The notes: generated from the sequence alone by a model not told the origin. A DNA stretch of 64,000 nt from an uncultured delta proteobacterium (GCA_963743305.1 CAVUPH010000025.1:1-64000); one strand, 5' to 3'; counted from the first letter of the stretch, positions 32,259 through 58,096 are shown. A program made the numbers and translations.

Positions 32259-32259
32259 T

Positions 32260-37505: not shown

Positions 37506-37565
37506 GACCTTACAGAAACCCAACCTACTGTCAACCCTGCCCTTGACCTAAAATAGCCCTTTTAA

Positions 37566-38518: not shown

Positions 38519-40808
38519 GACCGGCCCCCTGTCTGTCGGTCCGGCCGGAATCTTTCCCAAGGCCTGCCAGGACCCGTTCCGGGGTCACCGGATAGTCGTG
38601 CAGCCAAATGCCGACGGCATTGGAAACGGCCATGAGCACCGCCGAAGGCCCGGGCGAGGTAGCCACCTCCCCTACCCCGACGGCCTTGAAACGATGGCTG
38701 GGGATCGGCGTCTCCAAAACCACGTTGTCAATGACCGGCAAATTCGGGAAGGTCCTCCATTTATAATCGATCAGGTTGGCATTGAGGATCTGTCCACTGG
38801 TCCGATCGAGGACCGTCTCCTCAAAAAGGGCGCTGTCGATGCCTCCCGAGCCGAGGCAGCCGTTGAGCTGGCCCTCCAGCCCCGGCGGGTCGATGATCTG
38901 CCCCACGTCCGTGGCGTTGACCACGCGCCGCAGGGTCACCAGCCCGGTTTCAGTATCCACCTCCACTTCCACGAAGGTCATCATGCAATTGGCCAGGGTG
39001 AAATCCGGTTCAAAGCGGCCGGAACCCAGGCAGGTCCGGTCAATCCCCATGGCCTTCCAGGGAATCTTCTTTTCCGGATGCCCTTGAACAAAGACCAGGC
39101 CGTCCACCGTCTCCAGATCTTCCGGTCGGGCCTGGAGCCGGGGGGCCAGCAGATCAAAGAGTTTTTCTTTGGCGTCCTGGGCGGCGGCGATCACCGCACT
39201 GCCGATGGCATAGGTTCCCCGGGAACCCACCGGACCGAATTCATAGGGATTGATCACGGAATCGGGCTCGACGATGGAGATCCGTTCCCAGGGGATTTGC
39301 AGCACTTCGGCGGCCATCTTCATGAGGTTGCTCTTCTGCCCGGTCCCGTGCTCGGTCAGACAGGAAAAGATCAGGGCCGTTCCGTCCGGATGGAGGCGCA
39401 CGTAGGCCTCCGAGGCGTCTTCGCCGATGTCGGCGTTCCCATGGACGCCGACCCCCACTCCGATCCGTTTCGAGCCGTTTACGGCCGTGGGGGTGAGCCA
39501 CCCTTTCCATTTCTCTTTCCAGCCGAAGCGGGCGGCGCCCCGCTCCATGGCCGGGGTGTAGTCGACGCCCCGGTAGGTGTACCAGAGGCCGTCCCGCCAA
39601 AAATAGCCATCGCCGGGTTTGACGTAATTCTTCTTCAGCACCTCGAAAGGGTCCAAGCCGGCCTCGGCCATGGCCAGGGAGAGCAAGGGAATAAAGGCGC
39701 ATTTCAGCTCCTGGCCGCCGAACCCGCGGACGATACCCGAGGCGTTCCGATTGGTACAGACGATCTTCGTCTTGAGATCCCAGTTGGCGCAGCGCACCAT
39801 GATCTGCAGTTCTCCGCAGCCAACAGCCACCTGAGCCTGGGTGGTCATGGAGTACGAGCCGGTATCCACCAGCCAGTCTCCGGAAACGGCCGTTACGGTC
39901 CCGTCCTTTTTCAGGCCCACTCGGGCGCGCATACGTGATCCGGGCCGGAGGGTAAAGGTCGCCAAATGCTCTTCCTTAGTCAAGACCAGCTTCACCGGTC
40001 GGCCGGTGGCCCGGCTGAGGAGGGCCGCTTGGGCTTGCACCAGCCAGGACATCAGCTTGGACCCGAAACTCCCGCCGCAGGCGCCGCCTAGGGTCCGGAC
40101 CTTAACCTCCCGATTAAAAATATGGAACAGGGTAATCTGATCCATGTAGGGGGTCTGGGAGGATACCCAGACTGTCAGCGTATTCGGCTCTTCCCAAAGG
40201 GCCACGGCCCCCGGCGGTTCGGGGGGAATGGGGTTGGGCAGGTTTTCATAGCCGAAGGTCCCCTCGGTGATAACGTCGGCCTCTTGAAACCCCTTTTCCA
40301 CATCCCCCCTGACGACTTCTTTCAGGCATCCGGGTCCAAAAAAAGGAGTGCCGGGGGGCAGCACATTGCCCGGGAACTGCTTGTACAATTGGGGCGCCCC
40401 GGGTTTCAAGGCCTCTTCCACCTCGAAAACGGCGGGCAGGATTTCGTATTCCACTTCGATCAAACTCAGGGCCTCCAGGGCGATTTCTTCCGTCAAGGCG
40501 GCTACCAGGGCCACCGCATCGCCCACCTGCCTGACCTGGCGGTCGAGGACCCGTTTGCAGCGGGGCGTGCCTCCCCTCCAATCCGGCGCGTCTTCCCAGG
40601 TGAGCAGGGCTTTAACCCCCGGGAGCGCCAGTGCCCGGGTCTGGTCAATCCTCTTAATCAAGGCGTGGGGATGGGGGCTTCGCAGCACTTTTCCGTAAAG
40701 CAGGTCGGGGAATTTCAGATCATTGAGATAGGTGGTGCTTCCGGTGACAATCTCCCGGGCATCCCGGCGGGGGAGGTTTTTACCGATATAGCGGTAGGCC
40801 TCGGTCAT
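38515..40808 (-). CDS. Xanthine dehydrogenase-family molybdopterin subunit (frameshift near the 3' end)
   Basis: LRSPHPHA, GGSFGSK, VRGFGGQ, EHGTG, GVGE, PVTPERVL; probable stop overlaps ATG 38518. Confidence 0.9.
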
Positions 40809-40812
40809 GCCC

Positions 40813-41349
40813 TTACTTCCCTCGGGCGGAAACGGACAGGACCGCCTGCACCACCTGGTAGTGGCTGATACAGCGGCAGAAATGTCCGGACAGGGCTTCT
40901 TTGACCTGGTCTTCGGTGGGAGACGGATTTTCGTTGAGCAGAGCCCGGGCGCTCAGGATCATTCCCGGGGTGCAGAATCCACATTGAAAGGCGTTGTGAT
41001 CGATAAAGGCCTGTTGGAGGGGATCCAGCCTCCCTTCCCGAGGGTCCGCCAGTCCCTCGATGGTGGTGATCGCTTGCCCGTCGCATTCCACCGTCAGGGT
41101 CAGACAGGAAAGCCGGGGCTCTCCGTCGATCAGGACCGTGCAGGCCCCGCAGGCGCCGTGGTCGCAGGAGACCTTGGTGCCGGTGAGCCCCAGGGTTTCC
41201 CGGAGGGTGTGGGCCAGGGTCGCGGAGGGGTCGATCTGCCCGAGGCCGCTGCCCACTTCCAGATGAACGTCCTGGTTGTTAACGGTCAGACGGACGCGCC
41301 GGGTTCCGGTGACTTTTTTTCTCTTAGACCTGGTTGATTTAACAGGCAT
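40813..41349 (-). CDS. Mo hydroxylase [2Fe-2S] subunit
   Basis: CDHGACGACTV...SCL, QCGFCTPG, CRC. Confidence 0.93.
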   Translation of the reverse strand: MPVKSTRSKRKKVTGTRRVRLTVNNQDVHLEVGSGLGQIDPSATLAHTLRETLGLTGTKVSCDHGACGACTVLIDGEPRLSCLTLTVECDGQAITTIEGLADPREGRLDPLQQAFIDHNAFQCGFCTPGMILSARALLNENPSPTEDQVKEALSGHFCRCISHYQVVQAVLSVSARGK

Positions 41350-41639: not shown

Positions 41640-41679
41640 AAATGTTCCTGGCGATGACCTGAATATCTTAATTAAAGGG

Positions 41680-41848
41680 TTTAATACGAAAATAGAAGAT
41701 TCGGTGGTTATTCCAGCCCTTTTGAAATCCCTCTAAAGTCCCCCTTTGCTAAGGGGGACTTTAACTCCCCCCTTTGGCAAAGGGGGGCGGGGGGGGATTT
41801 TCATGCTACGGGGTACCCGCCCCGGGCATGGGGGTTTAGTACAAAATT
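41680..41848. repeat. ~170-bp dispersed repeat (copy 2 of 3579-3746)
   Basis: Same hairpin body and the same bounding TTTARTACRAAA motifs. Confidence 0.88.
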
Positions 41849-41888: not shown

Positions 41889-41948
41889 TTAAAGCGGATA
41901 AAAGGTCTTACCGGATTCCGCCATCTCCCGGATCAGTTCGGCCGGTTG
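41889..41948 (-). repeat. Diverged duplicate of the fadB 3' end (copy of 53007-53057)
   Basis: QPAELIREMAESGKTFYPL* versus QPARLIREMGESGKTFYSNGY*; 42/51 nt by hand count. Confidence 0.88.
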
Positions 41949-41957
41949 GTGCCGAAT

Positions 41958-42185
41958 CACCCATCGCTCAAACCGGAAGCGGTCTTTATGCTTCAGGAAG
42001 CTTTTCTTCGTGGGACTATCTCCCGGGGTGAAATGATCCGGGTTTCCGGGCTGGCCGAAAGGACGGGACGAAAAGTCACTGGGGCAACTGCTGAAAGAGC
42101 GGCTGCTGGTGTCGGATTCACCCAAGGGCGCCGTCCGGTTCGGCATTCCGACACCGGTCGCGGGGTATCTGTTTCCAGACCCATG
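41958..42185 (+). pseudogene. C-terminal remnant of a Fic-family protein
   Basis: LKPEA..MLQEAFLRG...RGE..RVSGLAERTGRKV, then in a shifted frame QLLKERLLVSDSPKGAVRFGIP....GYLFP. Confidence 0.72.
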
Positions 42186-42288
42186 TCCTGGTTTGCCGGA
42201 CGGGTAAAACCGAAGGGCCAAGGCCGGCGGACTTTATTCTTGACTTGACCATTTTATTTGACTACTTTGGACAAAGGAGGTGTATTCT

Positions 42289-42522
42289 ATGAAAACCATG
42301 GCCATTAGTGAATTTAAAGCCCAGGCCTTAAAGGTGATAAACGAAATCGCCCAATCCAGGGAACCCGTGGTCATAACCAAACGGGGCCGGCCGCTGGCCC
42401 GGGTTGTCCCCGTTCAGAAGAGTGAAACCAAGGCCACACCCGGGAAACTTGCCGCTGCCTTTGTTTTCGAAAAAGACATTGTTACCCCGCTAGGGCCGGA
42501 ATTGTGGGAAGCCAGCCGGTGA
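42289..42522 (+). CDS. Phd/YefM antitoxin
   Basis: MAISEFKAQALKVI.EI...REPVVITKRGRPLARVVP. Confidence 0.92.
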   Translation: MKTMAISEFKAQALKVINEIAQSREPVVITKRGRPLARVVPVQKSETKATPGKLAAAFVFEKDIVTPLGPELWEASR

Positions 42523-42917
42523 ATTATCTCCTCGACACGCACACCTGGGTCTGGTGGAATATGCGCCCCCAAAACCTCTCCCGCAGGGTCAGGGACTTGA
42601 TTGAGCAAGAAGACCGTTATGAAGAGCTGCTCCTGTCGGTCATTTCACCCTGGGAGTTTTGCAAGCTGCTGGAAAAGGGTAGGCTCGGGATCGCCGTCAA
42701 CCCGGAGGACTGGATCAACAGCGCCCTGGAAATGCCGAAGCTCAGGTTGGTTCAGCTTACCCCCCGGATAGCCTATCGTTCCACCACACTTCCCCAGCCT
42801 TTCCATGACGACCCGGCCGATCAGATCATTGTGGCCACAGCCCGGGAAGAACAGGCCGTGATTCTCACTAAAGACCAGAGGATTTTAAAATATAAACACA
42901 TTCAAAGTATTTGGTAA
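42519..42917 (+). CDS. vapC: VapC PIN toxin
   Basis: YLLDTHTWVW, SVISPWE, HDDPADQIIVATA, LTKD; GTGA overlap. Confidence 0.92.
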   Translation: MNYLLDTHTWVWWNMRPQNLSRRVRDLIEQEDRYEELLLSVISPWEFCKLLEKGRLGIAVNPEDWINSALEMPKLRLVQLTPRIAYRSTTLPQPFHDDPADQIIVATAREEQAVILTKDQRILKYKHIQSIW

Positions 42918-42956
42918 ACGGTGACCTCCACCGTCCGGCCCTGGCCGGATCCCCCT

Positions 42957-43922
42957 TTACATAATACAATCTTGAACAGCTCCCGGTGATGAGTTCCCGA
43001 ACTGAGGCAGTTGGGCGCCGGGGAACTGCATCCGGCATTCAAGCGCACAGCGAACGGGATTTGGTGAGGTGCTATAAAAAGTCTTCTCCTGTTCCGCCTT
43101 TTCCTTCCTTTCCCGTTCATCGGTTATCCCTTCCGGCGTGTCGTCTTTGGCCCCTAGTTCCCGCGATAACGTCTTCCCGGCATCCGCCACAAGCGGTCCG
43201 CAGCGACGCGCTTCTTCCGCGGAAGCCAGACCCAGAACGGCGATATAGCCGAGGGGTCGGCCGCTGGGACCCAGTACCGGCGCGGCCACCGCGTTGAGGC
43301 CCGGGGTGGTTTCCTCCAGGTCCTCGGCGAATCCATCCCGCCGGCAACGGTCCAGGTCTTTCATGAGTTTTGATTGGTCGAAACGGGACGGGTCCCCGTA
43401 AAAGTAAAGCTTCTTCTCCCTGAGTACATCTCGCAGTTCGGCCTCCGGGAGAAACGAAGCTATGGCCTTCCCATGGCAGCCGTAGGTGAGCGGCAAACGA
43501 TGTCCGACCCGCATGGTTACCACGACCGGACCGGGGCCTTCCCGCTTGGCGGCCACGAAGACGTTTCGGCCGGCGATCAAGCCCAGGGCCGCTGTGGTCC
43601 CGATCTTGCCGGCCAGTTCCTCCAGGATCGGCTCGGCCAGGCGGGGGGCGCTGAGATCGTCGAGGACCTTCCGGGAAAGGGAGATCAGACTGGGACCCAA
43701 AGCGTAGCCCTTTCCTTCTTCATTCTTCCGGATCAGTCCAAACCGCTGCAGCGTCTCCAGAATGGTAAAGGCCTTGCTCTTGTGGATCCCCACGCGGTCA
43801 CAGATTTCGTTGAGGCTCAGGGCCGGGGCCGGAGTTTCGGCGAGACGGAAGAGGATGCGCGCGGCCTGCTCTACGGCCGGCGATACATAGCGGTCATTGT
43901 TTTTCTTGATCGGGTCTTTCAA
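42957..43922 (-). CDS. IclR-family transcriptional regulator (last ~60 aa probably non-homologous read-through)
   Basis: PAVEQAARIL, HTH SLNEIC.RVGIHKSKAF.IL, HGKA, GLNAVAAPV, LSRELG. Confidence 0.9.
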   Translation of the reverse strand: MKDPIKKNNDRYVSPAVEQAARILFRLAETPAPALSLNEICDRVGIHKSKAFTILETLQRFGLIRKNEEGKGYALGPSLISLSRKVLDDLSAPRLAEPILEELAGKIGTTAALGLIAGRNVFVAAKREGPGPVVVTMRVGHRLPLTYGCHGKAIASFLPEAELRDVLREKKLYFYGDPSRFDQSKLMKDLDRCRRDGFAEDLEETTPGLNAVAAPVLGPSGRPLGYIAVLGLASAEEARRCGPLVADAGKTLSRELGAKDDTPEGITDERERKEKAEQEKTFYSTSPNPVRCALECRMQFPGAQLPQFGNSSPGAVQDCIM

Positions 43923-44028
43923 GGAATTGCCCTAAGCTTAATTTAGAACTCAGGTTTTGTATATAGAACTTTCAAAACAAGAAGCTCCTGTCAAGAAAAC
44001 AAATTGACATTCCGATACTAATATGCAG

Positions 44029-44051
44029 AATTACTTTATGTATAAGTAATT
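44029..44051. promoter_or_regulatory. Operator palindrome of the second abrB-vapC pair
   Basis: AATTACTT-N7-AAGTAATT downstream of TTGACA (44004). Confidence 0.6.
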
Positions 44052-44071
44052 ATGAATAAGGGAGTATTACC

Positions 44072-44359
44072 ATGCTGATGGAGGAACACCTGGGCACTAT
44101 TACCCAGAAAGGACAGGTCACCATTCCTCTGGCGATCCGCAAGCTACTAGGGGTGAAATCACGGGACCGGGTGGCCTTCCGTGTCATCGAGGGGCGGGTG
44201 GAACTTGCCCCGGCCACGATGTCTCTGGAAGACACCTACGGGGCGGTCAAGCCGACCGCCCGCCCTGAAAAATGGTCTGAGATCCGCCGCCGGGTTCGGG
44301 AGGAAAGGGTGGGGCTAAGGACCGGCAAAACCATCCGTCCACGGAAGGAAGGCCGCTGA
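44072..44359 (+). CDS. AbrB/MazE/SpoVT antitoxin
   Basis: TITQKGQVTIPLAIRKLLG....DRVAF. Confidence 0.9.
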   Translation: MLMEEHLGTITQKGQVTIPLAIRKLLGVKSRDRVAFRVIEGRVELAPATMSLEDTYGAVKPTARPEKWSEIRRRVREERVGLRTGKTIRPRKEGR

Positions 44360-44766
44360 TGGATTTTTTGGATACCAATGTGATCCTCCGGTACCTGACC
44401 CGGGACGACCCGGTTAAAGCCGAACGTTGCTACGAGCTTTTTCAGCGGGTCGAACGTAAAGAGGTCCGGCTGACGACCTCGGAATCGGTTCTGGCCGAAG
44501 TGGTATATGTGTTATCCTCCCGGTCGGTTTACAATCAAGGCCGCGAACAAGTGCGGAATTTGCTATTGCCGATCGTCTCTCTAAGTGGACTTCTGGTTCC
44601 ACATCGACGCTCATTCTTACGGGCCCTCGAATTCTACGCCGTCACGAATATGGATTTTGAAGATTGCCTTTCCCTGGCCCATATGGAACGGTTGAAAATA
44701 AAAACAATTGTGAGCTACGATCGGGATTTCGACCGGATAAATACCATCCAGCGCCACGAGCCCTGA
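44359..44766 (+). CDS. vapC: VapC PIN toxin
   Basis: FLDTNVILRYL, VLAEVVYVL, DFEDC, SYDRDFD. Confidence 0.92.
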   Translation: MDFLDTNVILRYLTRDDPVKAERCYELFQRVERKEVRLTTSESVLAEVVYVLSSRSVYNQGREQVRNLLLPIVSLSGLLVPHRRSFLRALEFYAVTNMDFEDCLSLAHMERLKIKTIVSYDRDFDRINTIQRHEP

Positions 44767-44987
44767 GCCGGGCGATAGGGAGGCGATTAATCCGGACGAG
44801 TCGAAGATTTGGGAATTCACCCCCACTCCCAAACCGGGCACTTCCCGCGGTGGGCGGGATGCCCGATTAAGAAGTTAAATTAATTTGACAATCTGGAAAT
44901 ATTTTAGATAGGAATTCATGAAGCTCGAATATTGAATTTTTTTATGGACAACCTTTAACCAAAGGAGTGTCGATGGAAGAATATTAG

Positions 44988-45023
44988 ACCCCATTTCTTG
45001 TTTAAAGAAGTGGGGTTTTTTTT
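44988..45023 (+). terminator. Rho-independent terminator upstream of SPARTA
   Basis: ACCCCATTTCT/AGAAGTGGGGT stem followed by a T-run. Confidence 0.75.
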
Positions 45024-45162
45024 AGTGGAGATGATATCGCCGCAGTTCATGGGTGGATGAAACCTGGGTAAGGGATTTTTGGGGAAAGAACCACTGCCGG
45101 ATAAAATGCGAGGTTGCCCCGGGGCAACCTTGCATTGGGACAGAATTGAGGTGCTGCGCCAA

Positions 45163-46525
45163 ATGACACGTCAAACGGTTTTCATAAGCAAGGCCACACC
45201 GGAAGATGATGAATTCGTCTTATGGCTTGCGCCACGGCTGGAGGCTTCAGGGTACACGGTATTTGCAGACATCCTGACTTTGGAAGCGGGCGACAGATGG
45301 CGCAAGGTAGTCACTCAAACTTTGCGGAAATCCGTTAAGATGCTTCTCTGTTGCAAAGATTCAACATTGGAAAAGGATGGTGTACAGGAAGAGATTGGTA
45401 TTGCGTTGGACATAGCCAAAGAAATCCAAGACCCTCGTTTTATCATACCACTTCGTCTTGAACCGTTTAAACGGCTATTCGGCATAGGGGAGATACAGTA
45501 CATTGATTTTGTCGGCAGTTGGGCGAGAGGTCTTCAAAGCCTGTTTGATACATTGGAAAATCAGGATGTCCCGCGACTAAAAGAAAAAATTTTGATTAAT
45601 CCGAACTGGGAGAACTACAAGAAGCGGCTCGCCATAAAGATTGAGGAGTCCCCCGAAATCCTGACCACGAGCTGGCTGAGCATTGCCCAGGTGCCGGAAT
45701 TCATTCGCTATTACCATCCTCCTGGCGCCGTTAACCAGTCGTTGATGCAAAGATGCTGCAACACCAATCCATCCCCTGCCGAAGTCTACCAACGCGGTTT
45801 CTTTTCCTTTGCGCTCCCCGAAGAGGTCAACCGTGATTTTGCCTATGTTGCCAAGTTCGTTGTCCGGAACCGAACACAATCTGATGGAACTTATTGAGAA
45901 CGGCAGCGAATCGCCTGGTATCAAGGCCAACGTCGCCGCTAATCTTGTCCTCTCCATGTTTCGCCGCAGTTGGGAAAGATTCTGCCGTAAGAAGGGTCTC
46001 TTTGAGTACCAATTCTCAGGGTCAATCGGGATTCTTGTTACCAAGGGACAAGTACCCCTTGGCAAGAGAATCCCCTGGGGAGAGAAATCCCTGCGCCGCT
46101 CCGCTATGCTCCGCAATGCCGCCAGTGGAAAGGTGTGGGAATACGGCGCTACGGCGACGCCATTTCTTCGGCCTTTTCCCCATTTCAAGTTCAAGGCCCG
46201 AATTCTCTTTTCCGAACAGTCCGGGAAAGAGGCCGGAGCAGTCATTCAGGACGCAGACAAACAGCATTACCACAGACGAACCATCTGCAGCAGGTGGCGC
46301 AATAAGGCCTGGCATGGGCGGTTCATGGCTTTTCTCGAATTGTTGTCAGGTTCCTCGCCATATATTGAATTGGCACTTGCCGAGTCATCTTCACTCGTCC
46401 TCGACGCACATCCCATTCTTGCGACATCCCCGGTTACAACTCTGTTGCCCGACACCATGCCGGAAGATGCGGAAGAGCAGGACCTTTCAACCCTGGGCAA
46501 CTTTGAAATGGAGGGTGAAGAGTAA
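45163..46525 (+). CDS. SPARTA TIR-APAZ effector (NADase), one frameshift near 45875
   Basis: VFISKATPEDDEFVLWL...GY.VFADI...GVQEEI...FIIPL...IDF..SWARGL matches the Maribacter/Crenotalea TIR-APAZ pattern; APAZ end QH..RR..C..W.N..W. Confidence 0.9.
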
Positions 46526-48079
46526 TGGACCTGCCGGAAAAGCATCTGGAGGTTGTGTATATCCCGGAGCCTGATCTCTGCTTCGGCTACGGTCAGGTGT
46601 GCGATCACCCGAAGGACGGTCTTTTTCTCTATGGTCCCCATTCCGGACCGACGCGGTCGAAAGAAATCTCCATTGGCGTGATCGGCACTCATAATGGTCT
46701 TAAATACTTCCGGAATTGGGCAATAAAGTTAGGGGGCTTCATTCCGATTCCTCCACCCGGCAAGACCGATAAAGAACATCGCTTGCATCTCTCCAATTTT
46801 CCCGGTATGGAAGAAGCCTTCGGTCTTGTTATCAGTCCTGGCGATTTTGTCGAGCTCAAGATCAGTCCGGATGAACTGGATAGAGCAACTAGGACCGCCA
46901 ACCATCATGAGGCGGTAAGGAAGGCAGTTGATCTATACATTCATGAAATCGAACGTTACGACAGGAATGAAGAACGCACGGTAGATATCTGGGTGTTTAT
47001 CCTTCCCGAACTGATTTTCGAGCGGTGCAAGTCACTTGCGAAGCGTACCGGACTTGAACTCGTCAAGGGTGATTTTCTCGAAGAAGCAGAAGGAACGCTT
47101 CGACATGCCGTTGTTTGCTGGGGTGATAGACCAGAGCGATGAAGCCATTTTCGACGATGTCCCCGACTTCCACCGCCAGGTCAAGGCACGGCTCCTGAAA
47201 TTCGGGCATACCTCGCAGCTGTTGCGGGAAACAACACTGGCGCCGGATGAATTTCTGAATAAAGCGAATCGTCCGACACGGCGGCTGCAAGATCCAGCAA
47301 CAGTGGCATGGAATTTGGCTACGGGCCTTTACTACAAGACGCAGCCGGAACCACCCTGGAAGGTGGCCAATGTGCGGCCGGGAGTCTGTTATATCGGCCT
47401 CGTGTTCAAGAACATTCCCAGAGACCCGAATGGTCATGTGTGCTGCGCGGCTCAGATGTTCCTGAACGAAGGAGACGCGGTTGTATTCCGCGGCGCCAAT
47501 GGTCCTTACAAGACCGGTGATTACGAATACCACCTCAAGGCCCCGGAAGCCAAAAGACTCATCTCAAAGGTGCTCGAAACCTTCCGGGATAAGCACGGAA
47601 CTATGCCTGACGAATTCTTTATCCACGGGAAAACGTACTTCAATAACGAGGAATGGGACGCCTTCTGCGAAGTCGCTCCGGCGGGCACCAACATTATTGG
47701 TGTCCGGATCAAGACGACCAGCGGCGATACGAAGCTTTTCCGGAATGGCGATTACCCCGTTATCCGCGGCACCGCACTAAAGCTTGATGAGCGAAGCGCC
47801 TACCTCTGGACAAACGGCTACGTCCCACGGCTGGATACTTACATAGGCCCGGAAACGCCCAATCCCCTCCATATCACCATCCAGAGAAGCACCGGCCTGC
47901 TCCCCGACATCCGAACCGTTTTGGCCGATATCATGGGGCTGACCAAGATCAACTACAACGCCTGCAACTACAATGACGGTCTTCCGGTCACCATACGGTT
48001 TGCCGAGAAGGTGGGAGAAGTGCTGGTTATGGGATCGGCAAAGGATGCGGAGAAACAACCGTTGAAGTTTTATGTATAA
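46525..48079 (+). CDS. Short prokaryotic Argonaute (MID-PIWI) of SPARTA, one frameshift near 47075
   Basis: YIPEP.L.F..GQ....[63 protein letters not shown]...DG.PVTIRFA.KVGE, KFYV. Confidence 0.93.
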
Positions 48080-48528
48080 GTTTGCGAAAAAGAAAAGAGA
48101 CAAGTTGCTTTTGTTGAGCGGAGTGGGGTCGCGTAAAGGTAACTGATTGATCTTAAACACAATATAGGTAAGATCATCCTTTAAAATGGGGCTATTTCGA
48201 GCTTTCGGCCGAATCGGGTCGGACCCAATGCCGTTAACTTAACAGAAAGAGCCTGTTTTTACTATCTTTGATGGCTTCGGGTTCCAGGGGTAACGGTTGT
48301 AGGACAGGGTATTTGCAAGGACGTCCCCGGCGACGCTTTTCAAAGCCCCGACTTTTTCGGCGATATTCCTGTCGATCCTGAGTGAACTGACGGCCCGGTT
48401 TTATAGACACGCGGTGACGGGCACAGGAGTTTATGAAGACTTCCCAACAAGAAAAGTGAGGGTCCGATCCCAATTGTTTCAATGGAAAATACCGCCTTCG
48501 CCGAAAGCATTTGAAAAGGAGGACCACC

Positions 48529-51500
48529 ATGCGTGTCAGCCGTTTGATTAAGTCGGCCATATCGTTAATTGTCGTGCTGCTCTGCCTGCTTTCCCCAAAC
48601 AAGGCCGCGGCCTCGACCGCCACCTTTCTGGCCGTGGCGGACGCGACCCTCAAAAGCAACTCACCGGATAGCAATTTTGGGGGCGATTCGACCCTCATCA
48701 TGACTTACGATCCCATTGAGTCAATCAAAGATGTGACGCTGGTCCGCTTTGATCTCTCTTCTCTGCCGGCGGATGCCATCATCGACAGCAACAGCCTGGA
48801 ATTATATCTGGAAAGCAGCGGCGGGCTCGATCCGGTCGGCCTGGCTGTCTATCTCGTGACCACGCCCTGGGCGGAGTCTACTGTCACGTGGAACACCAAT
48901 CCGACCACTTTCCCCTATGGCCTCCTCTGGCAGGTAGATGGGGCCTCGGGCTGGAAATCGATTGGCATCTCAACGAGTTGGATCACCAGTTGGCGGACCG
49001 GTAGCAATAACGGCCTATTGATCTATGGTCCGGTTTCTGGCGCCCAAGGCTATCACCGCAACTTTATCAGCCGAGAGCGGGGCTGGGACCCGCCGCGACT
49101 CACTGTCACTTACCACCGCCACACGGCCTTTGCCGGGCATGTCTACAGCGGAAACGCCATCGGCGATACCAGCCACCCGTTGGGAGACGTTGACGTGGCC
49201 CTCTACTGTTCGAGCGATCCGAATGTGCAGGGAGCGTTGGCCGACAGAACCAGCACGGATGAGTTGGGGGCCTTCAGTCTGGCGACGGATGAGACCTGCG
49301 AGATTTACAACATCATGGCCTTCGCCCCATCGGGCTACTACTCCCTCGGCGCCACCTCCAGCAATGGAATTATAAAAGCGGCCCATTGGATCCAGTATGT
49401 CTCCAATCAGACGGGGCAGGCTTTCACCGGGGATGCTTTCTTTGTCCATGTCCAAACCCCCAGCGATACTACTCCTCCCGACAACTGGACAAACTTTGCC
49501 CCGACGCAGTGGGTCACCTCCCAAACCGTTCACGTTCAGGAACAGGTGGAAGACACCCTCTCGGGGCTGGATGTCTCCACCGCCAAATGCAGCTACTCGA
49601 TCGATGGCGGTTCTTCCTGGAGCCCCTGGCGGTCGGCCTCGATCAGCGGGACGGGCGGAACAACCACCCCGCAGATCATCTCGGCCGACATCCCCTTCGG
49701 GCAAGACTCCGGACCGGCGAGCCTGAACCTGGTCCGGTTCCAGGTCGCCGACATGGCGGGCAATCCCGGCACCGGACCCAGCCACGCGGTCAAGGTGGAT
49801 TCGGTACCGCCCCAGAATCCGACCAGCCTGATCAGCACCAGCCATTCCCCGGGAGTCTGGTCCAACAACCCCCACGTCGCCTTTCAATGGACCGGCGCCG
49901 TGGATGACCGCAGCGGGTTAAAAGGGTACTCCTACGCCTGGGACAATTATTCCGGTACGGTGCCGGGTGTGTTCGTGGATACGGCGGCTGCCTCCTTGAC
50001 TCTAACGGCAGCGGCGGATTCGTCCGGGTGGTGGCTCCATGTGCGGGCTATCGATCAGGCGGGCAATGCCGCCAGCGGGGCGCAGCATCTGGGACCCTTC
50101 CCTATCGATATCACGCCGCCCACGGTTTTTTTGACCGAACCGGCGACGGGCAGCGTGAAAACAGCGACGTTCAATGTGGCCTGGAGTGGCAGCGACGGGC
50201 TTTCGGGAATTAGCGGTTACGATGTGCAAGTGAGCACCGATGGCGGGGCCTGGAACAACTGGCATCCGGGGGTCACCTATCAGTCGGCTTTCTTTACCGG
50301 GGAGCGGGCCCGAACCTATTCCTTCCGGGTGCGGGCTTGGGACCAGGCGGGAAACGTAAGTGGCTGGTCCACATCGGGGGTGGTACGGGTCGGGGGGGAC
50401 GTTACCGTGCGGGTTGAAAACGAAAACGGCCTACCGGTCAGCGGAGCGGATATTTACCTGAACGGGAAGCTGCAATCCACCTACGGGGCGGCCGTAGCCA
50501 CCCTGCACGACGTGCTGGCAGGCGATCAACTGGTCGCCCGCTACCTGGTCGAGCAACGCCCCTCCCCCAAGGGCTACCACAACTGGGTGTACGGAGACTG
50601 GTCGTACCGCATCTACATCACCAGCCTTGGTTTCGATAACAACGGCATTCCCCAGTTCTTCACCATCAGCGATCCGACGGCCACGCAGGTGCTGGTAGTG
50701 CGTCGTACCCAGCCCCTGATTGGCTTCTATGTGCTGGCCTCGGTAGAATGGGAAGCAACCACGGCCTTTCTGGATCAGTTGATGGACGGCTTTCGAGAGG
50801 CTTCCGCTTATCTATTCGACTTGACGGATGGCCAGATGCTGTTCGAGGTCATTGAGATGGACGATAATAAGGCCCGTTGGGCCCAAGCGGATTATTACAT
50901 CCAGGCCGCAAACGGGTACCGGGCCAATGCCACCGTAGGCGGCGTCTGGCAGGGCACGAATGCCCATGCTTACATGGGGCGCGGTTTTGATTGGACGGAC
51001 CTCAGCCATTTCCGGGCCTTGGTCCATGAATTTGGTCATTATGGGCTGGATTTGGGCGATGAATATTTCGACGCGGATGGTAGAGAAGACACGGGTGCCA
51101 AGTGTACGACCGACCGCAGCAATGCGGATGGCGTCGATCAAGCTTGTCTCATGGCCAACGAAAAAGTTGCCACGGAGATGTGCTCTTTGCTGACGGTCCA
51201 TCCCCATAGCACCAATACCATGCAAGAGGCAACTCGCCACGAGCCCTGCTGGGAAACCGTATACAAGCGATACCAGGACACTCAGAATCCGCCACGCTGG
51301 ATCATCCAACGCCCCCAGGATCGCGGCAGCATCATGCCTGGGCCCACTAGCATTCCGGTGACCGATTGGGTGTGGGGTGGGACTCGTATCAAATCAAACA
51401 CCGGGGCCTGCGGATCCTTCGATCTCCGCTGGGTGTTCGTGGCGGACGGCAGCCCGGCCGCGGACTTTGACGTTTGGGTGGAAGGCAACAGCCCTTTGTA

Positions 51501-52371
51501 CCAGGGGAAGACGGACAAAAACGGGCTGATTTCGATTGTCGGCGCGCATAGCGGAGATACGATCCGGGTGCAGAAGAGTTGTGGTTCGGACTGCTCCAAT
51601 TCCGGATCGGTCACGGCGAATTGCGCGACTGGGCAACTGGCAGGTGAGCCCGTACCCCTAAAGCTTAAACAAGACCCGTTTGCGCTGGCCGTCAAGGTAA
51701 CGCCCTCGGCTGAGGGGACAACCGTAGATATTTCGGCCCAAGCATCCACTACCCTCGCGGCTACGCCAACCCTTCAAATTTATCAAGCCGGTTCGCCAGA
51801 TCCCCTGACAGTGGCGCTGACTTTTGATGGTGCGGCTTACACCGGCAGTGTCGCCTTGAATCCCGCTTTGGAATTGCTGGGCGTCGTGCGAGGGGAAGCG
51901 GTGGATGGCAGCGGTCATTCCGTCGTCACCCTCACGCCTTTCAAACTGAATCGGGTGGATTCGGGTCAAATAACCTGGCTGCGCTCGGAAGACGGCAAGG
52001 TGGACATATTCCTCAAGCCCGGCAGCCTGACCGGAGATCCGGTCGTGAGTGTTTCCCGCGCCTCTCAAGTGAACCTGAGACAGGAAGGGCTGGTCCTGGT
52101 CGGAAGCCCTTATGCGGTGACGGTCTCCAATGGGCAAGAAGCTTTGCAGGAAAAAGCCGCCGTCAACATCCATTACGACCCGGATGCGGTGCCCGGTCGG
52201 GATCCCGGCGCTTTGCATATCTATCGCTGGGATGAACAGTCTCAAAAATGGGTCGACGATGGCGGTGCGGTCAGCCGTGAAAACCAAGCGGTAACCACTA
52301 CGGTTGGACGCCTGGGGACTTTTGTCCTGGCCTGGGAACCCAAAATCCATTTGCCGCTCATTTTCAGGTAG
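48529..52371 (+). CDS. Large secreted multidomain protein: DNRLRE domain, Ig/Fn3-like repeats, HExxH zincin (CLCA-like)
   Basis: Signal peptide; ADAT....PD.NFG...LVRFDLS..P..A.I....L.LY...W.E..VTWN; D..PP/D.AGN repeats; HEFGHYGLDLGDEY; C-terminal IHLPLIFR. Confidence 0.85.
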   Translation: MRVSRLIKSAISLIVVLLCLLSPNKAAASTATFLAVADATLKSNSPDSNFGGDSTLIMTYDPIESIKDVTLVRFDLSSLPADAIIDSNSLELYLESSGGLDPVGLAVYLVTTPWAESTVTWNTNPTTFPYGLLWQVDGASGWKSIGISTSWITSWRTGSNNGLLIYGPVSGAQGYHRNFISRERGWDPPRLTVTYHRHTAFAGHVYSGNAIGDTSHPLGDVDVALYCSSDPNVQGALADRTSTDELGAFSLATDETCEIYNIMAFAPSGYYSLGATSSNGIIKAAHWIQYVSNQTGQAFTGDAFFVHVQTPSDTTPPDNWTNFAPTQWVTSQTVHVQEQVEDTLSGLDVSTAKCSYSIDGGSSWSPWRSASISGTGGTTTPQIISADIPFGQDSGPASLNLVRFQVADMAGNPGTGPSHAVKVDSVPPQNPTSLISTSHSPGVWSNNPHVAFQWTGAVDDRSGLKGYSYAWDNYSGTVPGVFVDTAAASLTLTAAADSSGWWLHVRAIDQAGNAASGAQHLGPFPIDITPPTVFLTEPATGSVKTATFNVAWSGSDGLSGISGYDVQVSTDGGAWNNWHPGVTYQSAFFTGERARTYSFRVRAWDQAGNVSGWSTSGVVRVGGDVTVRVENENGLPVSGADIYLNGKLQSTYGAAVATLHDVLAGDQLVARYLVEQRPSPKGYHNWVYGDWSYRIYITSLGFDNNGIPQFFTISDPTATQVLVVRRTQPLIGFYVLASVEWEATTAFLDQLMDGFREASAYLFDLTDGQMLFEVIEMDDNKARWAQADYYIQAANGYRANATVGGVWQGTNAHAYMGRGFDWTDLSHFRALVHEFGHYGLDLGDEYFDADGREDTGAKCTTDRSNADGVDQACLMANEKVATEMCSLLTVHPHSTNTMQEATRHEPCWETVYKRYQDTQNPPRWIIQRPQDRGSIMPGPTSIPVTDWVWGGTRIKSNTGACGSFDLRWVFVADGSPAADFDVWVEGNSPLYQGKTDKNGLISIVGAHSGDTIRVQKSCGSDCSNSGSVTANCATGQLAGEPVPLKLKQDPFALAVKVTPSAEGTTVDISAQASTTLAATPTLQIYQAGSPDPLTVALTFDGAAYTGSVALNPALELLGVVRGEAVDGSGHSVVTLTPFKLNRVDSGQITWLRSEDGKVDIFLKPGSLTGDPVVSVSRASQVNLRQEGLVLVGSPYAVTVSNGQEALQEKAAVNIHYDPDAVPGRDPGALHIYRWDEQSQKWVDDGGAVSRENQAVTTTVGRLGTFVLAWEPKIHLPLIFR

Positions 52372-52375
52372 ATTG

Positions 52376-52540
52376 GATTTGAACACGGTCCGGGCGGGAG
52401 TTGCCGCGCACCCGCGGGAATGGCCCTATTCCGGATATAAGGAAATTCAAACGCCCCGGTGAAGATAGGGCCTGATCGATCACGAGAGACTGATGGATTT
52501 AACCGGGGTGAAAAGCCGGCAGGACTTCAAAGAACTCCAT
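52376..52540 (+). pseudogene. Fragment of a REP-associated tyrosine (Y1/HUH) transposase
   Basis: DLNTVRAGVAAHPREWPYSGYKEIQTPR*R*GLIDHERLMDL matches the N.VRAG...HP..W..S region; two in-frame stops. Confidence 0.75.
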
Positions 52541-52604
52541 CTTCGCGGCCTATCGGCGGTTGAGTTTAGGCCTTGGGCACTGGAGGTACAGAGAGGAGTG
52601 CACG

Positions 52605-52949
52605 ATGAGCAACGAACAGGTGGCACCCGAGACGAAAGGGGTTACGGTGAAGTTACTGGCAACGGTTGACCTTGGCCCTGAGATCGAGGGCCTGGCAGGG
52701 CGCCAACTTAGAATGCGTATGGTGACCATCGAGCCCGGAGGCGTCTTCGGCCCGGTTCACGACCATAAAGGCAGACCAGGCACCGTCTACATACTGCAAG
52801 GAACGATCACGGACCATCGAAATGGAATGGCTACGGACTATGGACCGGGAGTGGGCTGGCCCGAGGATAGGAACACCACTCACTGGCTTGAGAACAGAGG
52901 AACGATTCCGGCAGTGGAGATCTCGGTCGATATAGTCAGGCAAGAGTAA
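52605..52949 (+). CDS. Cupin domain protein
   Basis: LRMRMVTIEPGG...HDH..RPG.VYILQG.I, HWLENRG. Confidence 0.88.
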   Translation: MSNEQVAPETKGVTVKLLATVDLGPEIEGLAGRQLRMRMVTIEPGGVFGPVHDHKGRPGTVYILQGTITDHRNGMATDYGPGVGWPEDRNTTHWLENRGTIPAVEISVDIVRQE

Positions 52950-52991
52950 ACCTCAACGTGGCATAAAAAACAGGGCGGAAAATAAATAGAG

Positions 52992-55124
52992 TTAATATCC
53001 ATTGGAATAAAATGTCTTCCCGGATTCCCCCATTTCCCGGATGAGCCTCGCCGGTTGATAGCGGGGTCCGTAACGCTTTCCCAGGTCCAACAGCTTTTCA
53101 TAGACCTGCTTTAACCCCCAGGCATCGGCGTAGCGCAGGATGCCGCCGCGGTAGGCCGGAAAGCCGGTGCCGTTGATCATGGCCAGGTCCATGTCCGGGG
53201 GACGGTCGCAGATCCCTTCGGCGATCATCAGGGCCGCCTCGTTAATGCCCAGGGCCAGGAGGGTGTCGACAATTTCTTGAGGTTCCATTTTCTGAGGAGC
53301 AATCCCCTTCTCTTGCTGATACTCTCGTATCACTTCCCCCACTTTGGGGTTAGGGACAGGCCTGCCACCCGAATAGTCAAAATATCCGGCCCCGGTCTTC
53401 CGCCCGTAGCAACCGGTCTGATAAATCCGTTCGATCAGGGGATGCAGGGTGTAGCGCTTCCCCAGCTTCCGGGCGAAAGTCTGGTTAACATGGTAACCGA
53501 TGTCGATCCCGGTCAGGTCTTCCAGGGCGGCCGGCCCCAGGGGCATCCCGAAGTCCTTAACGGCCTGCTCGATGGCCGCCAAATCCACACCGTCGGCCAG
53601 CAGGTAGGGCATACCGGCAAACAGGGCGATGAGTTGACGGGTTACATAAAAGCCGGGGCCGTCGTTGACCACCAGCATGAATTTTTTAATGCTCTTGGCG
53701 AAGGAGACACCGGTGGCCAGGGTCTGGTTTGAGGTCTTCTCCCCGCAGATAATTTCCAAAAGCGGCATCCGCTCCGCCGGGTTGAAGAAATGGAGACCGA
53801 TCATTCGTCCTGGATCTTTCAGGACGGAGGCCATCTCGGTGATGGGCAGGGCCGAGGTGTTCGTTCCGAAAATCGTTTCCGGTCTACAGATCTCGTCCAG
53901 TTTTTTCCAGATCTCCCGCTTGACCTCCATATCTTCCAACACGGCCTCGATCACCAGGTCTACATCCTTCAGACCCTCAAGCGAAGTGGTGGTGAGGAGT
54001 CGGTCTCGGATCAGTCCCTCAAGATTCTCCTCGGTCATTTTCTTCTGTTTGATCGGATAAGCAAAGCTCCGACGGACTGCCTCCAGCCCTTTTGAAGGGC
54101 ACTCTCGTCGATATCCCAGAGCACGGTCTCAAAACCGTTTTTAATCAGCAGATGGACAATCCCCGAGCCCATGACTCCGCCGCCCAGCATGGCCACCTTC
54201 TTGATTTTAGCCGGTTCGAGGCCCTTGATCCTTGGGTGCCGTCCGGCCGCTCGGGTGTTCAAAAAAACGCCGATCAAATTTTTGGCGATAGCGGATACAG
54301 CGCAATCGCTAAACAGTTCCACGTCCCGGCGGATGTCGATTTCCAGATCGGCAGTCAGCCCTTGCTCCAAGGCCTCCAGGGCCTTGAAGGGGGCCAAGAC
54401 CCCCCGGAATTTTTTGGCGTTCCGATTTTTGAATTCCTCGATGACGGCCTTTTTCTCTTCCGCGTCGGCTAGAAGATCCTTTCGATTCCGGGTTATCCGC
54501 TGCCCCGGTCGAGTTCTCCGGAAATAAACCGACGCGCGGCCTTCAGGGCGGCCTCCTGCAATTCGTCGGACCCGACCACCTCATCCACCAATCCCAGCGT
54601 CCGGGCCTCCCCAGCCTTGATCGGTTGACCGTAGGCGATCATCTCCAGGGCACGAGGGAGACCGATCAGCCGGGGCAGCCGCTGGATCCCGCCCGCCCCG
54701 GGAATCACCCCGAGTTGGACCTCCGGCAGCCCCAGAAGGGCCTCGGGGACGGCCAGCCGGTAATGCCCGGCCAGGGCCGCCTCGAATCCGCCGCCTAAAC
54801 AGTTGCCGTTGACGGCCATGACCACCGGCTTGGGTGCGGTTTCGATGGCGGTGAATAATCCGGCTGCGGTCCAACCCAATTGAAAGGCCTCCTCCGCGTT
54901 TTCAGCGATTGCAGTTCCGTAATATCGGCACCGGCAATAAAATTCTTTCCAGTCCCCGTCAAGACCAGGGCCTTGACCGCCGGATCGCCCATAGCCGCTT
55001 CAATGGCGTCTCTCAGGTCCCGGCTGAGTTGGGGGGACATGGGATTGACCGGCGGATTGTCGATGGTCAGGACGGCGGTTTGGTCCTGGAGTGATATTTT
55101 GATGGTTTTATATTCGGTTCGCAT
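52992..55124 (-). CDS. fadB: Enoyl-CoA hydratase/3-hydroxyacyl-CoA dehydrogenase (FadB/FadJ type), several frameshifts
   Basis: IDNPPVN, FIAGADI, LGGGFE, LPEVQLG.IPG.GG.QRLPR, LGGGVMGSGI, IEAVLED, TNTSAL, HFFNPA. Confidence 0.9.
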
Positions 55125-55155
55125 GGAATTAGTCCTTTAACACGAAAATAAAGAC

Positions 55156-55256
55156 GAACATCGAACATCGAACGTCCAACATCTAATTTAATTTGTTGTT
55201 TTTTATCGCAAAGCGAAGCAAATTTTCCTTTGCGTCCTTTGCGTCTTTGCGGTGAA
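55156..55256. repeat. Intergenic short-repeat cluster (AACATCG heptamers; CCTTTGCGT repeats)
   Basis: GAACATCGAACATCGAACGTCCAACATC at 55156-55183; CCTTTGCGTCCTTTGCGTCTTTGCGGTGAA at 55227-55256. Confidence 0.7.
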
Positions 55257-55259
55257 TTT

Positions 55260-56447
55260 TTAAGCCTTTTCTATAATGATTGCCTGTCCGTGGCCGCTGC
55301 CGCCGCAGAGGGCCGCCAGGCCGAGCTTCAGATCCCGCTTTTCCATTTCGTGGATCAGGCTGACCACCAGCCGGCAGCCGGTATTGCCTATGGGATGCCC
55401 GAGCGCTATGCCGCCCCCGTTCACGTTGACGATCTCCCTGTTTAGACCAAGCTCTCGCTCCACCGCCACCGAGGGTGCGGCAAAGGCTTCGTTGATCTCA
55501 AACAGTTCGATATCTTCAAGGCGATAGGCCGTCTGCTGCAAAAGTTTCCGGATGGCCGGGATGGGCCCGATCCCCATAATCCGTGGATCCACACCAACTG
55601 CCACAGATCCTACAATTCGCCACTTTCGTTTCATGTCCAACTGCTCGGCCAATTCCCTGGAGATCACCAGGACCGCAGAGGCGCCATCGTTCATTCCGGA
55701 GGAATTGCCGGCGGTCACTGTGCCGTCTTTCTTGAAGGCCGGAGGGAGCCGGCTCAACCCCTCCAGCGTAGTCTCCGGTCGGGGATGCTGATCGGTATCG
55801 ACGATGACATCCTTTTTCCCCTTCTTACCCGGAATCACCACCGGCACGATTTCATCCTTAAATCTTCCTTCTTCCAGCGCTTTCTTAGCCCGCATCTGGC
55901 TGACATAGGCAAACTCATCCTGGTCTTCCCTGGAGATATGGTATTGTTCGGCCACGTTTTCGGCCGTCAGCCCCATGATAAGGCCGGAATATTGATCGAA
56001 TAGACCGTCCCAGACGCCGTCGGACAACTCCTGGTGACGGAGACGCAATCCCCACCGGGCGTTCTTTATCGAATAAGAGACATTGCTCATGCTCTCTCCG
56101 CCACCGGCGAGGATCGCCTCGCCTTCGCCCAGCCGTATCCTCATCGAGGCGATTCGGATCGCTTCCATGGACGAACAGCAGGCCCGGTTCGACGTGCACC
56201 GCCGAGACATGCTCGGGTATGCCGGCCTTCAAGGCCGCACAGCGGGCCAGACCGTTCTCGTCGCTGCGCACCATGACCACCCCCCAGTAGACATCGTCCA
56301 GTTTTCCTTGGGGAAGTTCACCCTCTCACAGACCTCAGCCATTACCGTGCCGGCGAGCTGCTCATGAAGAACGTCTCTCAGCGCCCCGCCAAAGGAAGCG
56401 ATAGGCGTCCTGACCGCGGAAACAATAATCGGATCCCTTTTATCCAT
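55260..56447 (-). CDS. Acetyl-CoA C-acyltransferase (thiolase), frameshifts in the 5' part
   Basis: SAVRTPI..F.G.L, NRACCSSM, TAGNSSG.NDGA, EINEAFA, NVNGGGIALGHPIG, LC.G.G. Confidence 0.92.
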
Positions 56448-56539
56448 TTTGATGGTTCTCCCTTGTTCATCGAATTTCAGTAACAACAACCTTTCATGCT
56501 TTGGTCCGAGGAAAGCTTGCCTCTTTATGCCGACTCCGA

Positions 56540-58031
56540 CTACCAATGGGGCGGAAATTCCGGGAGCTGCGCATACGCAGGATGGCTGTTTGAATCCTCG
56601 ATCCTGGCCGCCCTCTTGGCCGCTGCCTTGTATCGGTCGAAATCAGCTAAAGTGAGTATGGAAAGCTTCTGAGCCTCCAGCGATCCCTCGGCGTGAATGG
56701 TGAGCACATCTTCATAGGAGGAGGTCAGGTCCCTGACGAGTTTGACCATGCGGAGCCGGTCTTCTGTCGGGACACCGGCCTTTCCTGCCCAAATACTTGT
56801 CCAGCAGGGATCGGGTTTCGGGATTGAAGTAATCTTTGGAAGACGGAGCAGGTCAGCCACAATCCCTCCGGAAATGTCCTGAATGTATTTTGTGGCCTGA
56901 TGCCAGTTATCGGCAAAGTAGAATTTGCAGATATTGGCGATCATCGGATTCGGGTAGACAAGGTCCGAGTCCTTTTCGCTGCTGCAATGTTCCACGGCCG
57001 CCCTTCCCAGGGTTTCCACTGCTTCGGCATACATGGCCAGCCAGGTCAGCTTATCCCTAACATGCGCCGCCTTTTCTACGCCGTTGTACTCAGCCATCAG
57101 GACAGCGGCCCCCGTAAACAGCTCCAGTTCCATGGCCTTGTATGTCTCGGCGCTCAGGCGATGGAAGTTGGCAAACATGTAAGCCACCTCGTCCGGCGAA
57201 TTCCCATTCGCCTTTCAAGAAGAGACGCTCGTTGGGAACAAAAACGTCCTCAAAAATAACCGTTGCGTCATTTATGAAGATGCTGCCGGCAATGGGATGA
57301 TCAAACAGGCTGACCCCTCGCTAACCTCCGGTTCCGCGGAGATCAAGGTCAAGCCTTTGGCGTTGAGAGGGACCCCGAAGGCGACGGCATAGGCCTTGTC
57401 GTCCTCCCTCATGGCCCGGCAGGGGGCAATTAATATCTCATTGCAGAGAGGCGCCTGGCTGATATGAGTTTTCGCCCCCTCACGATCTACGCCGTCTTTG
57501 CGCTCTTCCACAATTCGCACGTAAAAATCCTGATGCTGCTTCTGCTGAGAGGGTCGGAGGCTCCTGTCACCCTTGACATCGGTCAGGCCCATGGCGAATG
57601 AAAGATCATTTTTTTGCAGGTGCTTGCGATAGGCTTCCACGTTTGCGGCGTAATGGGTCCCATATTTCTTGTCAATTCGGGGGCTAACCACGGTCACCGC
57701 ATTCAAACCGTCCTTGGCCACAAACTCGCCCCCCGAAGGCTTTCCGAAGCAGACCCGGGCCCACAGCTTTACCATCTCGCGGAGCCGCAGGAGATCCTCT
57801 CTCGTTCGTTGTGGCATCAACGCAAAGCTGACCCTTTCTCCGTCCTCATCCAATTCAGTCAGAAGATCCTGGTAGCGGATCAAGATTCAAAACATAATCC
57901 ATGGCCATCCAGTCGCGGCAGATCTTTAGAATCGGATGATTCGTTACATCCGGGACCCTTTCGCCGTTGCAGTAAACAACCCTGCCATCCTTGAGGCTTT
58001 CGATGTATTCTTGTGGTGTCTTCAGCGCCAT
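56540..58031 (-). CDS. 4-hydroxybutyryl-CoA dehydratase / HpaB-family flavoprotein, several frameshifts
   Basis: MALKTPQEYIESLKDGR, LTDVKGDRSLRP.QQ...D.YVRIVE, GAK.HI, F..FHR, QDISGG, HAEGS..AQK. Confidence 0.85.
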
Positions 58032-58096
58032 TCGTCGTCTCCTTTTTTCTTAGGTTATAATTTTACAATTTAGCCCAATTGAATATTGATTAAAGC

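Follow-up and report, generated by a model that had tools for sequence, protein, structure and literature searches.

The window analyzed here, a 64,000-nt stretch of DNA from an uncultured delta proteobacterium (GCA_963743305.1, CAVUPH010000025.1:1-64000), contains two copies of the 3′ end of fadB, the gene for an enoyl-CoA hydratase/3-hydroxyacyl-CoA dehydrogenase. One copy closes the resident fadB gene, and the other is a 60-nt orphan in the same orientation, located ~11 kb away beside a molybdenum (Mo) hydroxylase operon. Between them lie the genes of SPARTA (short prokaryotic Argonaute with TIR-APAZ; PMC9097488), two toxin-antitoxin pairs and several other accessory genes. A sequence-only reading of the window had taken this interval for an integrase-free defense island bounded by duplicated fadB tails and seated in the 3′ end of that gene.

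The two copies, 41898-41948 and 53007-53057, were recovered by repeat finding as a direct pair of 51 nt, and a script count confirmed the earlier figure of 42/51 identical positions (82%) with five synonymous changes. The nine differing bases are five synonymous third positions and four bases within two changed codons (E/R and A/G). Given the base composition of the window, 4.6e-8 direct pairs at 42/51 are expected in 64 kb, the chance for a single pair being 2.3e-17. On the minus strand, the short copy reads ...RHQPAELIREMAESGKTFYPL and the resident gene ends ...RYQPARLIREMGESGKTFYSNGY, with its TAA stop at 52992-52994. The short copy consists of 17 codons, Pro-Leu and a stop, and shares 15 of 17 residues with the C-terminus of the resident FadB, keeping the consensus at conserved positions. 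It has the C-terminal signature of FadB/FadJ proteins (..PA.LI.EMAESGKTFY, with a stop a few codons on) and is located 540 nt upstream of coxS, the first gene of the Mo hydroxylase operon. Direct repeats of the 3′ end of a presumptive target gene, in frame, are therefore present at both borders of the interval.

For comparison across the family, we used 80 genome loci retrieved with the C-terminal piece of FadB, to which two metagenome-assembled genomes (MAGs) contribute two loci each, together with the 120 best database homologues. In tblastn searches of the window with the C-terminal 150 aa of the resident FadB and its homologues P0003-P0008, one strong match per query (E ~1e-8) fell within 41892-41969 among the matches listed (resident FadB, P0003, P0004, and P0006-P0008), and these matches included no further fadB remains upstream of the orphan, past 41969. 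An extension of fadB over the seven codons at 41949-41969 was considered and rejected, this stretch being the antisense of a neighboring winged-helix-like gene remnant. Its identity to the resident gene is 9/21 nt, compared with 42/51 directly beside it (Fisher p=0.0015), and it breaks two residues that are nearly or fully invariant in the family, a Y (78/80 loci, 119/120 homologues) replaced by W and a G (80/80, 120/120) replaced by V. Because these residues are broken and identity drops upstream, we place the end of fadB homology at 41948/9, a sharp boundary. The orphan tail and the remnant abut head to head, each lacking its 5′ part, so that an orphan 3′ fragment beyond the interval is joined to unrelated DNA without att features.

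The translation of the remnant (41946-42207) matches the C-termini of 27 proteins at E≤1e-3 (P0363-P0389; best 88% over 41 aa), and its similarity to one of them, P0377, begins at ‘LVP..SLKPEAV’, at ~41946. Neither as a single sequence nor as a profile did it match Pfam, NCBIfam, or PDB. A profile built from 23 relatives gave only weak matches to winged-helix proteins of the MarR/GntR type (E 0.16-1.1), and Atlas leads were exclusively of the helix-turn-helix type (0.86). The previous description of this segment as a Fic remnant was accordingly not confirmed, its relatives being short winged-helix-like proteins.

All 80 loci and all 120 best homologues end in a version of ..PA.LI.EMAESGKTFY followed by 0-4 residues, with the F[YW] pattern kept throughout. 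Because the motif is family-wide, likeness at the protein level shows no more than that the short copy derives from the end of a fadB-family member. Its closer affiliation is indicated by a Q...R residue pair common to both copies and otherwise found in one of the 80 loci and one of the 120 homologues, and by nucleotide identity, which for the short copy is 43/51 to the closest orthologous locus (L001) and 42/51 to the resident gene, the mean of the 80 loci being 36.1. On these two grounds, we assign the orphan to the resident gene's own sub-lineage.

The tails also differ in how typical they are of the family. The orphan has the consensus residue at every conserved position and ends two residues (PL) after FY, as do 63/80 loci and 82/120 homologues. 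Among the homologues that are 80-86% identical to the resident FadB (P0003-P0008), the endings are TFYLK, TFYPK, TFYPL, TFYPK, TFYPV, and TFYPGA; that of P0005 (83%) is exactly the ending of the short copy, which the sequence-only reading had predicted for relatives. At a position occupied by A in 76/80 loci and 120/120 homologues, the resident FadB has G, which none of the 200 sequences shows; it also extends four residues past FY, a length of at least four being reached in one of 80 loci and one of 120 homologues. Over the 51-72 nt on which these comparisons rest, the orphan tail thus looks more ordinary than the present tail of the resident gene.

Table 1. Coordinates of the two fadB ends, the interval between them, and the adjoining Mo hydroxylase operon
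Feature	Position (nt)	Strand	Remarks
Mo hydroxylase operon	37549-41349	-	S-L-M order; all subunits complete apart from frameshifts
FAD subunit (coxM-like)	~37549-38560	-	residues 22-310 of the HcrB paralogue align in two frames
Mo subunit (coxL-like)	~38520-40808	-	95% to P0123 over residues 1-752
2Fe-2S subunit (coxS-like)	40813-41349	-	family match
Palindromic dispersed repeat	41677-41848		between orphan tail and coxS; second copy at 3576-3746
Orphan fadB 3′ end	41889-41948	-	17 codons 41898-41948; Pro-Leu 41892-41897; TAA 41889-41891
Winged-helix-like remnant, family without name	41946-42207	+	5′-truncated, frameshifted; abuts orphan tail
Phd/YefM antitoxin	42280-42522	+	Pfam, E=1.7e-10
PIN toxin	42504-42917	+	Pfam, E=5.3e-15
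IclR-family regulator	42957-43922	-	native-like codon usage; homologues 62-89% among best 120
AbrB/MazE-type antitoxin	44072-44359	+	Pfam
PIN toxin	44359-44766	+	Pfam
SPARTA TIR-APAZ gene	45079-46525	+	one frameshift near 45870
SPARTA short prokaryotic Argonaute (pAgo) gene	46525-48079	+	one frameshift near 47040-47140
Non-coding-looking block	48223-48470		upstream of large protein gene; resembles L075 4240-4500, an unrelated MAG locus
Large secreted protein	48529-52371	+	CBM96/DNRLRE and PKD-like domains
Cupin_2 protein	52560-52949	+	convergent with fadB, 42 nt from its stop; atypical codon usage
Resident fadB	52992-55124	-	four pieces from 1-nt gaps; collinear with L001, 79% nt
Resident fadB part matching orphan tail	53007-53057	-	51-nt repeat

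Most of the genes named for this interval by the sequence-only reading were recovered (Table 1), the Phd-PIN and AbrB-PIN pairs, the IclR regulator, and the cupin by Pfam and SPARTA by PADLOC. Both toxin-antitoxin pairs (42280-42917 and 44072-44766) show a VapBC-like arrangement, with the antitoxin gene just upstream of, or overlapping, the PIN gene. PADLOC recognized only the SPARTA genes among the 12 proteins scanned; toxin-antitoxin pairs are not part of its library.

The SPARTA locus consists of a TIR-APAZ gene directly adjacent to a short pAgo gene (MID-PIWI), and the reading frame of each gene is interrupted by one frameshift. The PADLOC model Aga_TIR-PNTD1-PNTD2 (443 positions) is matched in two frames, over positions 1-233 (E=1e-79) and 233-432 (E=9e-53), and the short pAgo gene covers positions 2-159 and 163-493 of pAgo_I (493 positions). 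A tblastn search with the C-terminal part of pAgo returned 102 plasmid records, the best of them alphaproteobacterial plasmids at 65-73% identity (top 72.6%). At the DNA level, the interval showed a single 146-nt match to plasmids.

The large protein had been called a secreted protease. Its hydrophobic N-terminus is signal-like and it contains a single HEFGH (HExxH) motif at residue 839 (nt 51025), in keeping with that description, but no peptidase family was matched, and a CLCA N-terminal match stayed below threshold (E=0.017). A RAYT remnant reported from the same part of the interval was not substantiated: the stretch at 48223-48470 has neither a protein-family nor an Rfam match and resembles the non-coding-looking block in L075, with conserved islands in a MAFFT alignment, of which only 33 nt are significant by blastn.

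No excisionase, relaxase, or transfer genes were found in the interval. A search for an RNA attachment site returned no tRNA, tmRNA, or Rfam matches in the whole window.

Among relatives, L001 is both the closest orthologue (83% FadB identity) and the sole syntenic one, being collinear with the window over a short-chain dehydrogenase, an HpaB-family gene, a thiolase, and fadB. Its contig ends 92 nt past the fadB stop, and these 92 nt gave no signal against either downstream region of the window (local scores 9.0 and 8.5; shuffle means ~8.4). Sequence reaching 1 kb or more past the fadB stop is available for 76 of the 80 loci, and 5 kb or more for 58; none of the 80 contains an IclR, cupin, large-protein, or SPARTA match. 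A same-strand thiolase lies within 2.5 kb downstream in 67/80 loci, which says little on synteny because these are fadB-fadA operons of another arrangement. The fadB match P0008 (80%) and the coxL match P0127 (83%) are each reported on one contig of 22,798 nt, with a single source common to both, and their equal contig size suggests that fadB and coxL are probably linked, rather than shown to be adjacent, in one relative. In the best 120 matches of each search, P0008 is the only fadB match on a 22,798-nt contig, and no IclR match comes from a contig of that size.

Upstream of fadB, CGAACATCGAAC-type motifs recur at 55145-55187, in the 135-nt gap just before the start of the gene. Such motifs are also repeated, in direct and inverted orientation, at 16258-16402, between ketopantoate-reductase-like and MarR genes, and could represent a shared operator linking two catabolic clusters.

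On the other side of the interval, the three Mo hydroxylase genes share the minus strand with fadB, as the earlier reading had noted, and have native-like codon usage. Truncation of the operon at both ends was considered and rejected because coxM is full length in two frames. It is one of two paralogous three-subunit Mo hydroxylases of the 4-hydroxybenzoyl-CoA reductase type in the window, the order being gamma-beta-alpha at 11505-15166 and gamma-alpha-beta at 37549-41349, and the large subunits of the two are ~33-35% identical, as judged via a P0123/P0127 comparison. An IclR match (P0327, 66%) and a coxL match (P0192, 76%) both lie on 19,295-nt contigs from the same source, which hints that IclR-type regulators occur near this kind of operon in more distant relatives.

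The palindromic repeat between coxS and the orphan tail is 81.6% identical over 174 nt to its second copy (E=1e-40). This ~172-nt element is built around CCCCC-TTWGCAAA-GGGGG hairpins and looks like a dispersed repeat of the repetitive extragenic palindromic (REP) or miniature inverted-repeat transposable element (MITE) kind. Its exact core motif is absent from the 80 loci, and it has no Rfam match. Another short dispersed repeat forms a 36-nt inverted pair (3431-3466 and 20741-20776) that is 97% complementary across 17 kb.

Many genes of the window are split, namely fadB, the HpaB-family gene, and the thiolase (52992-58032), coxL/coxM (37549-40808), an outer-membrane efflux protein (27709-29194), and SPARTA (45079-48079). 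Compared with L001, the frameshifts in fadB are single bases missing in G runs (54893, 54503, and 54086), and the HpaB-family and thiolase genes contain further short gaps of both kinds. Because the fadB breaks are of this nature, the split genes are probably long-read consensus errors rather than pseudogenes, and the SPARTA frameshifts probably have the same origin.

Elsewhere in the window, 31332-34559 is a graveyard of partial paralogues of the neighboring efflux and two-component cluster. An HlyD fragment at 32305-32676 matches the intact gene (26411-27739) over residues 258-385 with 77% aa identity. Fragments of a kinase ATPase and of an ETF are also present, along with a second EF-hand protein sharing 50% identity with the first. 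A low-GC stretch (~45-51%) that follows, extending to 37.5 kb, contains a PIN gene and a RelB-like gene, and an EF-hand protein gene harbors a tandem 261-nt duplication with 90% identity (23317-23838).

The reading we favor, with a probability of about 0.45, is that the resident fadB originally ended in 41889-41948, since displaced by ~11 kb of foreign DNA. This DNA would have inserted within the last ~60 nt of the gene and moved the original end downstream, to its place beside coxS, while supplying a fadB-like end of its own that would complete the gene with G for A and the four-residue extension. The cargo would be a mosaic, probably added to later, of two VapC-type pairs, IclR, SPARTA, the secreted HExxH protein, and the cupin. 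Accretion or a mosaic donor is a reasonable assumption because codon usage is mixed and pAgo has relatives on alphaproteobacterial plasmids (65-73%), which fits the earlier suggestion of growth by successive additions. Displacement would account for the co-orientation of the two copies, the exactly terminal position of the match, the ordinary orphan alongside an odd resident tail, the cargo, and the probable fadB-coxL linkage.

We infer both the direction of events and the mechanism, and divide the latter about evenly between two options. The insert may have been a tyrosine-integrase-type island whose integrase end was later deleted, which would explain the short terminal repeat; a crossover in the shared ATCCGGGA would then put all odd residues on one island-borne mimic. 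Alternatively, a homology-anchored illegitimate insertion would account in one event for the missing integrase as well as for the truncated gene at the join, although a donor diverged by 18% is a poor partner for homologous exchange, which weakens this option. The left junction, where two truncated genes abut, is equally compatible with a decayed integrase island and with a deletion or an illegitimate join.

Several observations weigh against displacement. In line with the sequence-only reading, Pfam found no integrase, transposase, or other recombinase domain, whether in the annotated open reading frames (ORFs) or among stop-to-stop ORFs of 45 aa or longer, of which 90 out of 128 were scanned (the other 38 lie inside the large protein gene, ~48.75-52.29 kb). 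As to an island seated in the fadB 3′ end, a true orphan 3′ end with accessory DNA is present, but there is no long exact att-like core: the longest identical runs in the repeats are 8-9 nt, enough for a 6-8 bp overlap and not distinctive. Codon usage, proposed as a check, is atypical for SPARTA, the cupin, and the truncated remnant, but native-like for IclR, one antitoxin, and the large protein. Synteny, the other proposed check, yielded the TFYPL* ending in P0005; in gene order, coxS or coxL occurs near fadB in 0/80 loci, 67 of which have the fadB-fadA arrangement, and L001 stops too soon to be informative. Equal size (22,798 nt) is the sole ground for placing P0008 and P0127 on the same contig, and the coxL match P0126 (86%) lies on a 44,633-nt contig, a size at which no fadB match occurs among the top 120. 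None of the 80 loci contains another orphan fadB tail; each of the 66 tails that the motif located belongs to a long ORF, which gives no indication that the fadB site is used repeatedly. Paralogue relics elsewhere in the window follow no island logic, such as the HlyD fragment (77%) 5.7 kb from its intact gene. Finally, the last 60 nt of the resident gene are 80% identical to L001, the whole gene 79%, and the resident codons after FY (TCC AAT GGA) resemble the CCC AAA TGA of L001; the resident tail could on these grounds have arisen by vertical descent and stop loss in place. Sliding identity between fadB and L001 ranges from 0.65 to 0.87 without a step at the last 60 nt (0.80), though L001 is perhaps equally far from donor and recipient. 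Close relatives with a single fadB ending ...MGESGKTFYSNGY* would contradict displacement.

A deletion relic is a sizeable possibility, if short of an even chance. Here the orphan would descend from a second functional fadB of the same sub-lineage that once stood directly upstream of coxS, a single deletion from inside this gene into the divergent winged-helix gene having left its last 60 nt, and the 11-kb interval would not be one island bounded by a duplication. Such a deletion would produce exactly the head-to-head abutment of two 5′-truncated genes, and any member of the family would leave a tail of this kind, given that the C-terminal motif is universal (80/80 and 120/120). Several fadB homologues per genome are not unusual, as the two MAGs with two loci each illustrate, and relics of other paralogues (the 77% HlyD fragment and the kinase and ETF fragments) are at hand in the same window. 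Distances among the short copy, the resident gene, and L001 are similar (9, 8, and 11 differences in 51 nt), and IclR and the large protein look native by codon usage. Nevertheless, a relic requires the luck that just the last 60 nt of a 2.1-kb gene remain, in the same orientation, and makes a coincidence of the G unique to the resident gene and of its rare extension. The still-perfect consensus of the orphan implies that the deletion would have to be recent, and the 22,798-nt contig size shared with the coxL match is represented by one fadB match only in the best 120.

The remaining explanations carry little weight. Chance, or convergence on a short conserved peptide motif by a sequence that was never part of fadB, could appeal to the shortness of the match (51-60 nt) and to its position on the opposite strand beside another gene's remnant; we consider it effectively refuted, because the match is in frame, has a stop two codons after FY, differs mostly synonymously, and at 42/51 nt has an expectation of 4.6e-8. 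A chimeric or mis-joined long-read contig, with the DNA of two strains side by side, would agree with the many single-base gaps in G runs that mark an unpolished consensus. We regard it as highly improbable, since a mis-join at a shared repeat yields one hybrid copy, not two copies 11 kb apart, and at 82% identity, a 51-nt match would not deceive an assembler; the two flanks, moreover, share a dispersed repeat family and similar codon usage. It is likewise improbable, if slightly less so, that the FadB C-terminal coding motif serves as a dedicated landing site in sulfate-reducer relatives for defense-carrying islands that bring a tail mimic and are moved in trans without an integrase of their own.

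If displacement is the true history, SPARTA and two toxin-antitoxin pairs were lodged in the 3′ end of a catabolic gene, which was not inactivated thereby, and the orphan tail pinpoints a breakpoint for which reads and related genomes can be screened. A conserved C-terminal motif can make the tail of any family member resemble a duplicated attachment site, so that claims of this kind need an empty site in a relative.

The arrangement has counterparts among known systems. Contrary to the earlier view of the 3′ end of such a gene as an unusual target, elements located in conserved 3′ ends of protein genes, flanked by repeats of 12-54 bp and barely changing the product, are well documented as a class in the account of PMC4701971, although a limited literature search found no title or abstract naming fadB as an integration target. 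As in the 3′-end integrative elements covered there (integrative and conjugative elements, integrative and mobilizable elements, and genomic islands), the repeats at our locus correspond to the 3′ end of the target, the gene remains whole, its C-terminus is slightly altered, and the repeat length (51-60 nt) is near the reported range. Unlike those elements as described in that source, the interval has no integrase, excisionase, relaxase, or transfer gene that we could find, its repeats are 82% alike with no exact core above 9 nt, and a truncated unrelated gene stands at the distal repeat.

Orphaned 3′ regions or orphan genes are left behind when displacement occurs through homology-facilitated illegitimate recombination, a process that PMC5361080 describes for Rhs and contact-dependent inhibition (CDI) loci and for type VI secretion system effector-immunity arrays of Vibrio cholerae. 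Common to that process, as outlined there, and to the fadB locus are a conserved upstream anchor, an incoming DNA with its own gene end, and an old end shifted downstream as a same-orientation orphan; the process requires no recombinase and places the far join arbitrarily. In contrast to the loci presented in that report, the anchor here is a metabolic gene rather than a toxin locus, the orphan is single rather than part of an array, and the homologous step would be inefficient, donor and recipient differing by ~18%.

Defense genes located between conserved chromosomal genes, with no identifiable means of mobilization, also recall the hotspots without a detectable mobile element that feature in PMC10121019, namely hotspot #37 of Escherichia coli and the core defense hotspots of Pseudomonas aeruginosa cited there. 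Those hotspots are defined by occupancy across strains, whereas our locus is a single genome with one PADLOC-recognized system, SPARTA. The latter resembles SPARTA as presented in PMC9097488 in that a short pAgo gene comes directly after a TIR-APAZ gene and both match PADLOC class I models over their full length, and differs from it in the frameshift carried by each gene and in being known here from sequence. Each element of the picture therefore has precedent, and the locus adds a data point to these systems rather than a new principle.

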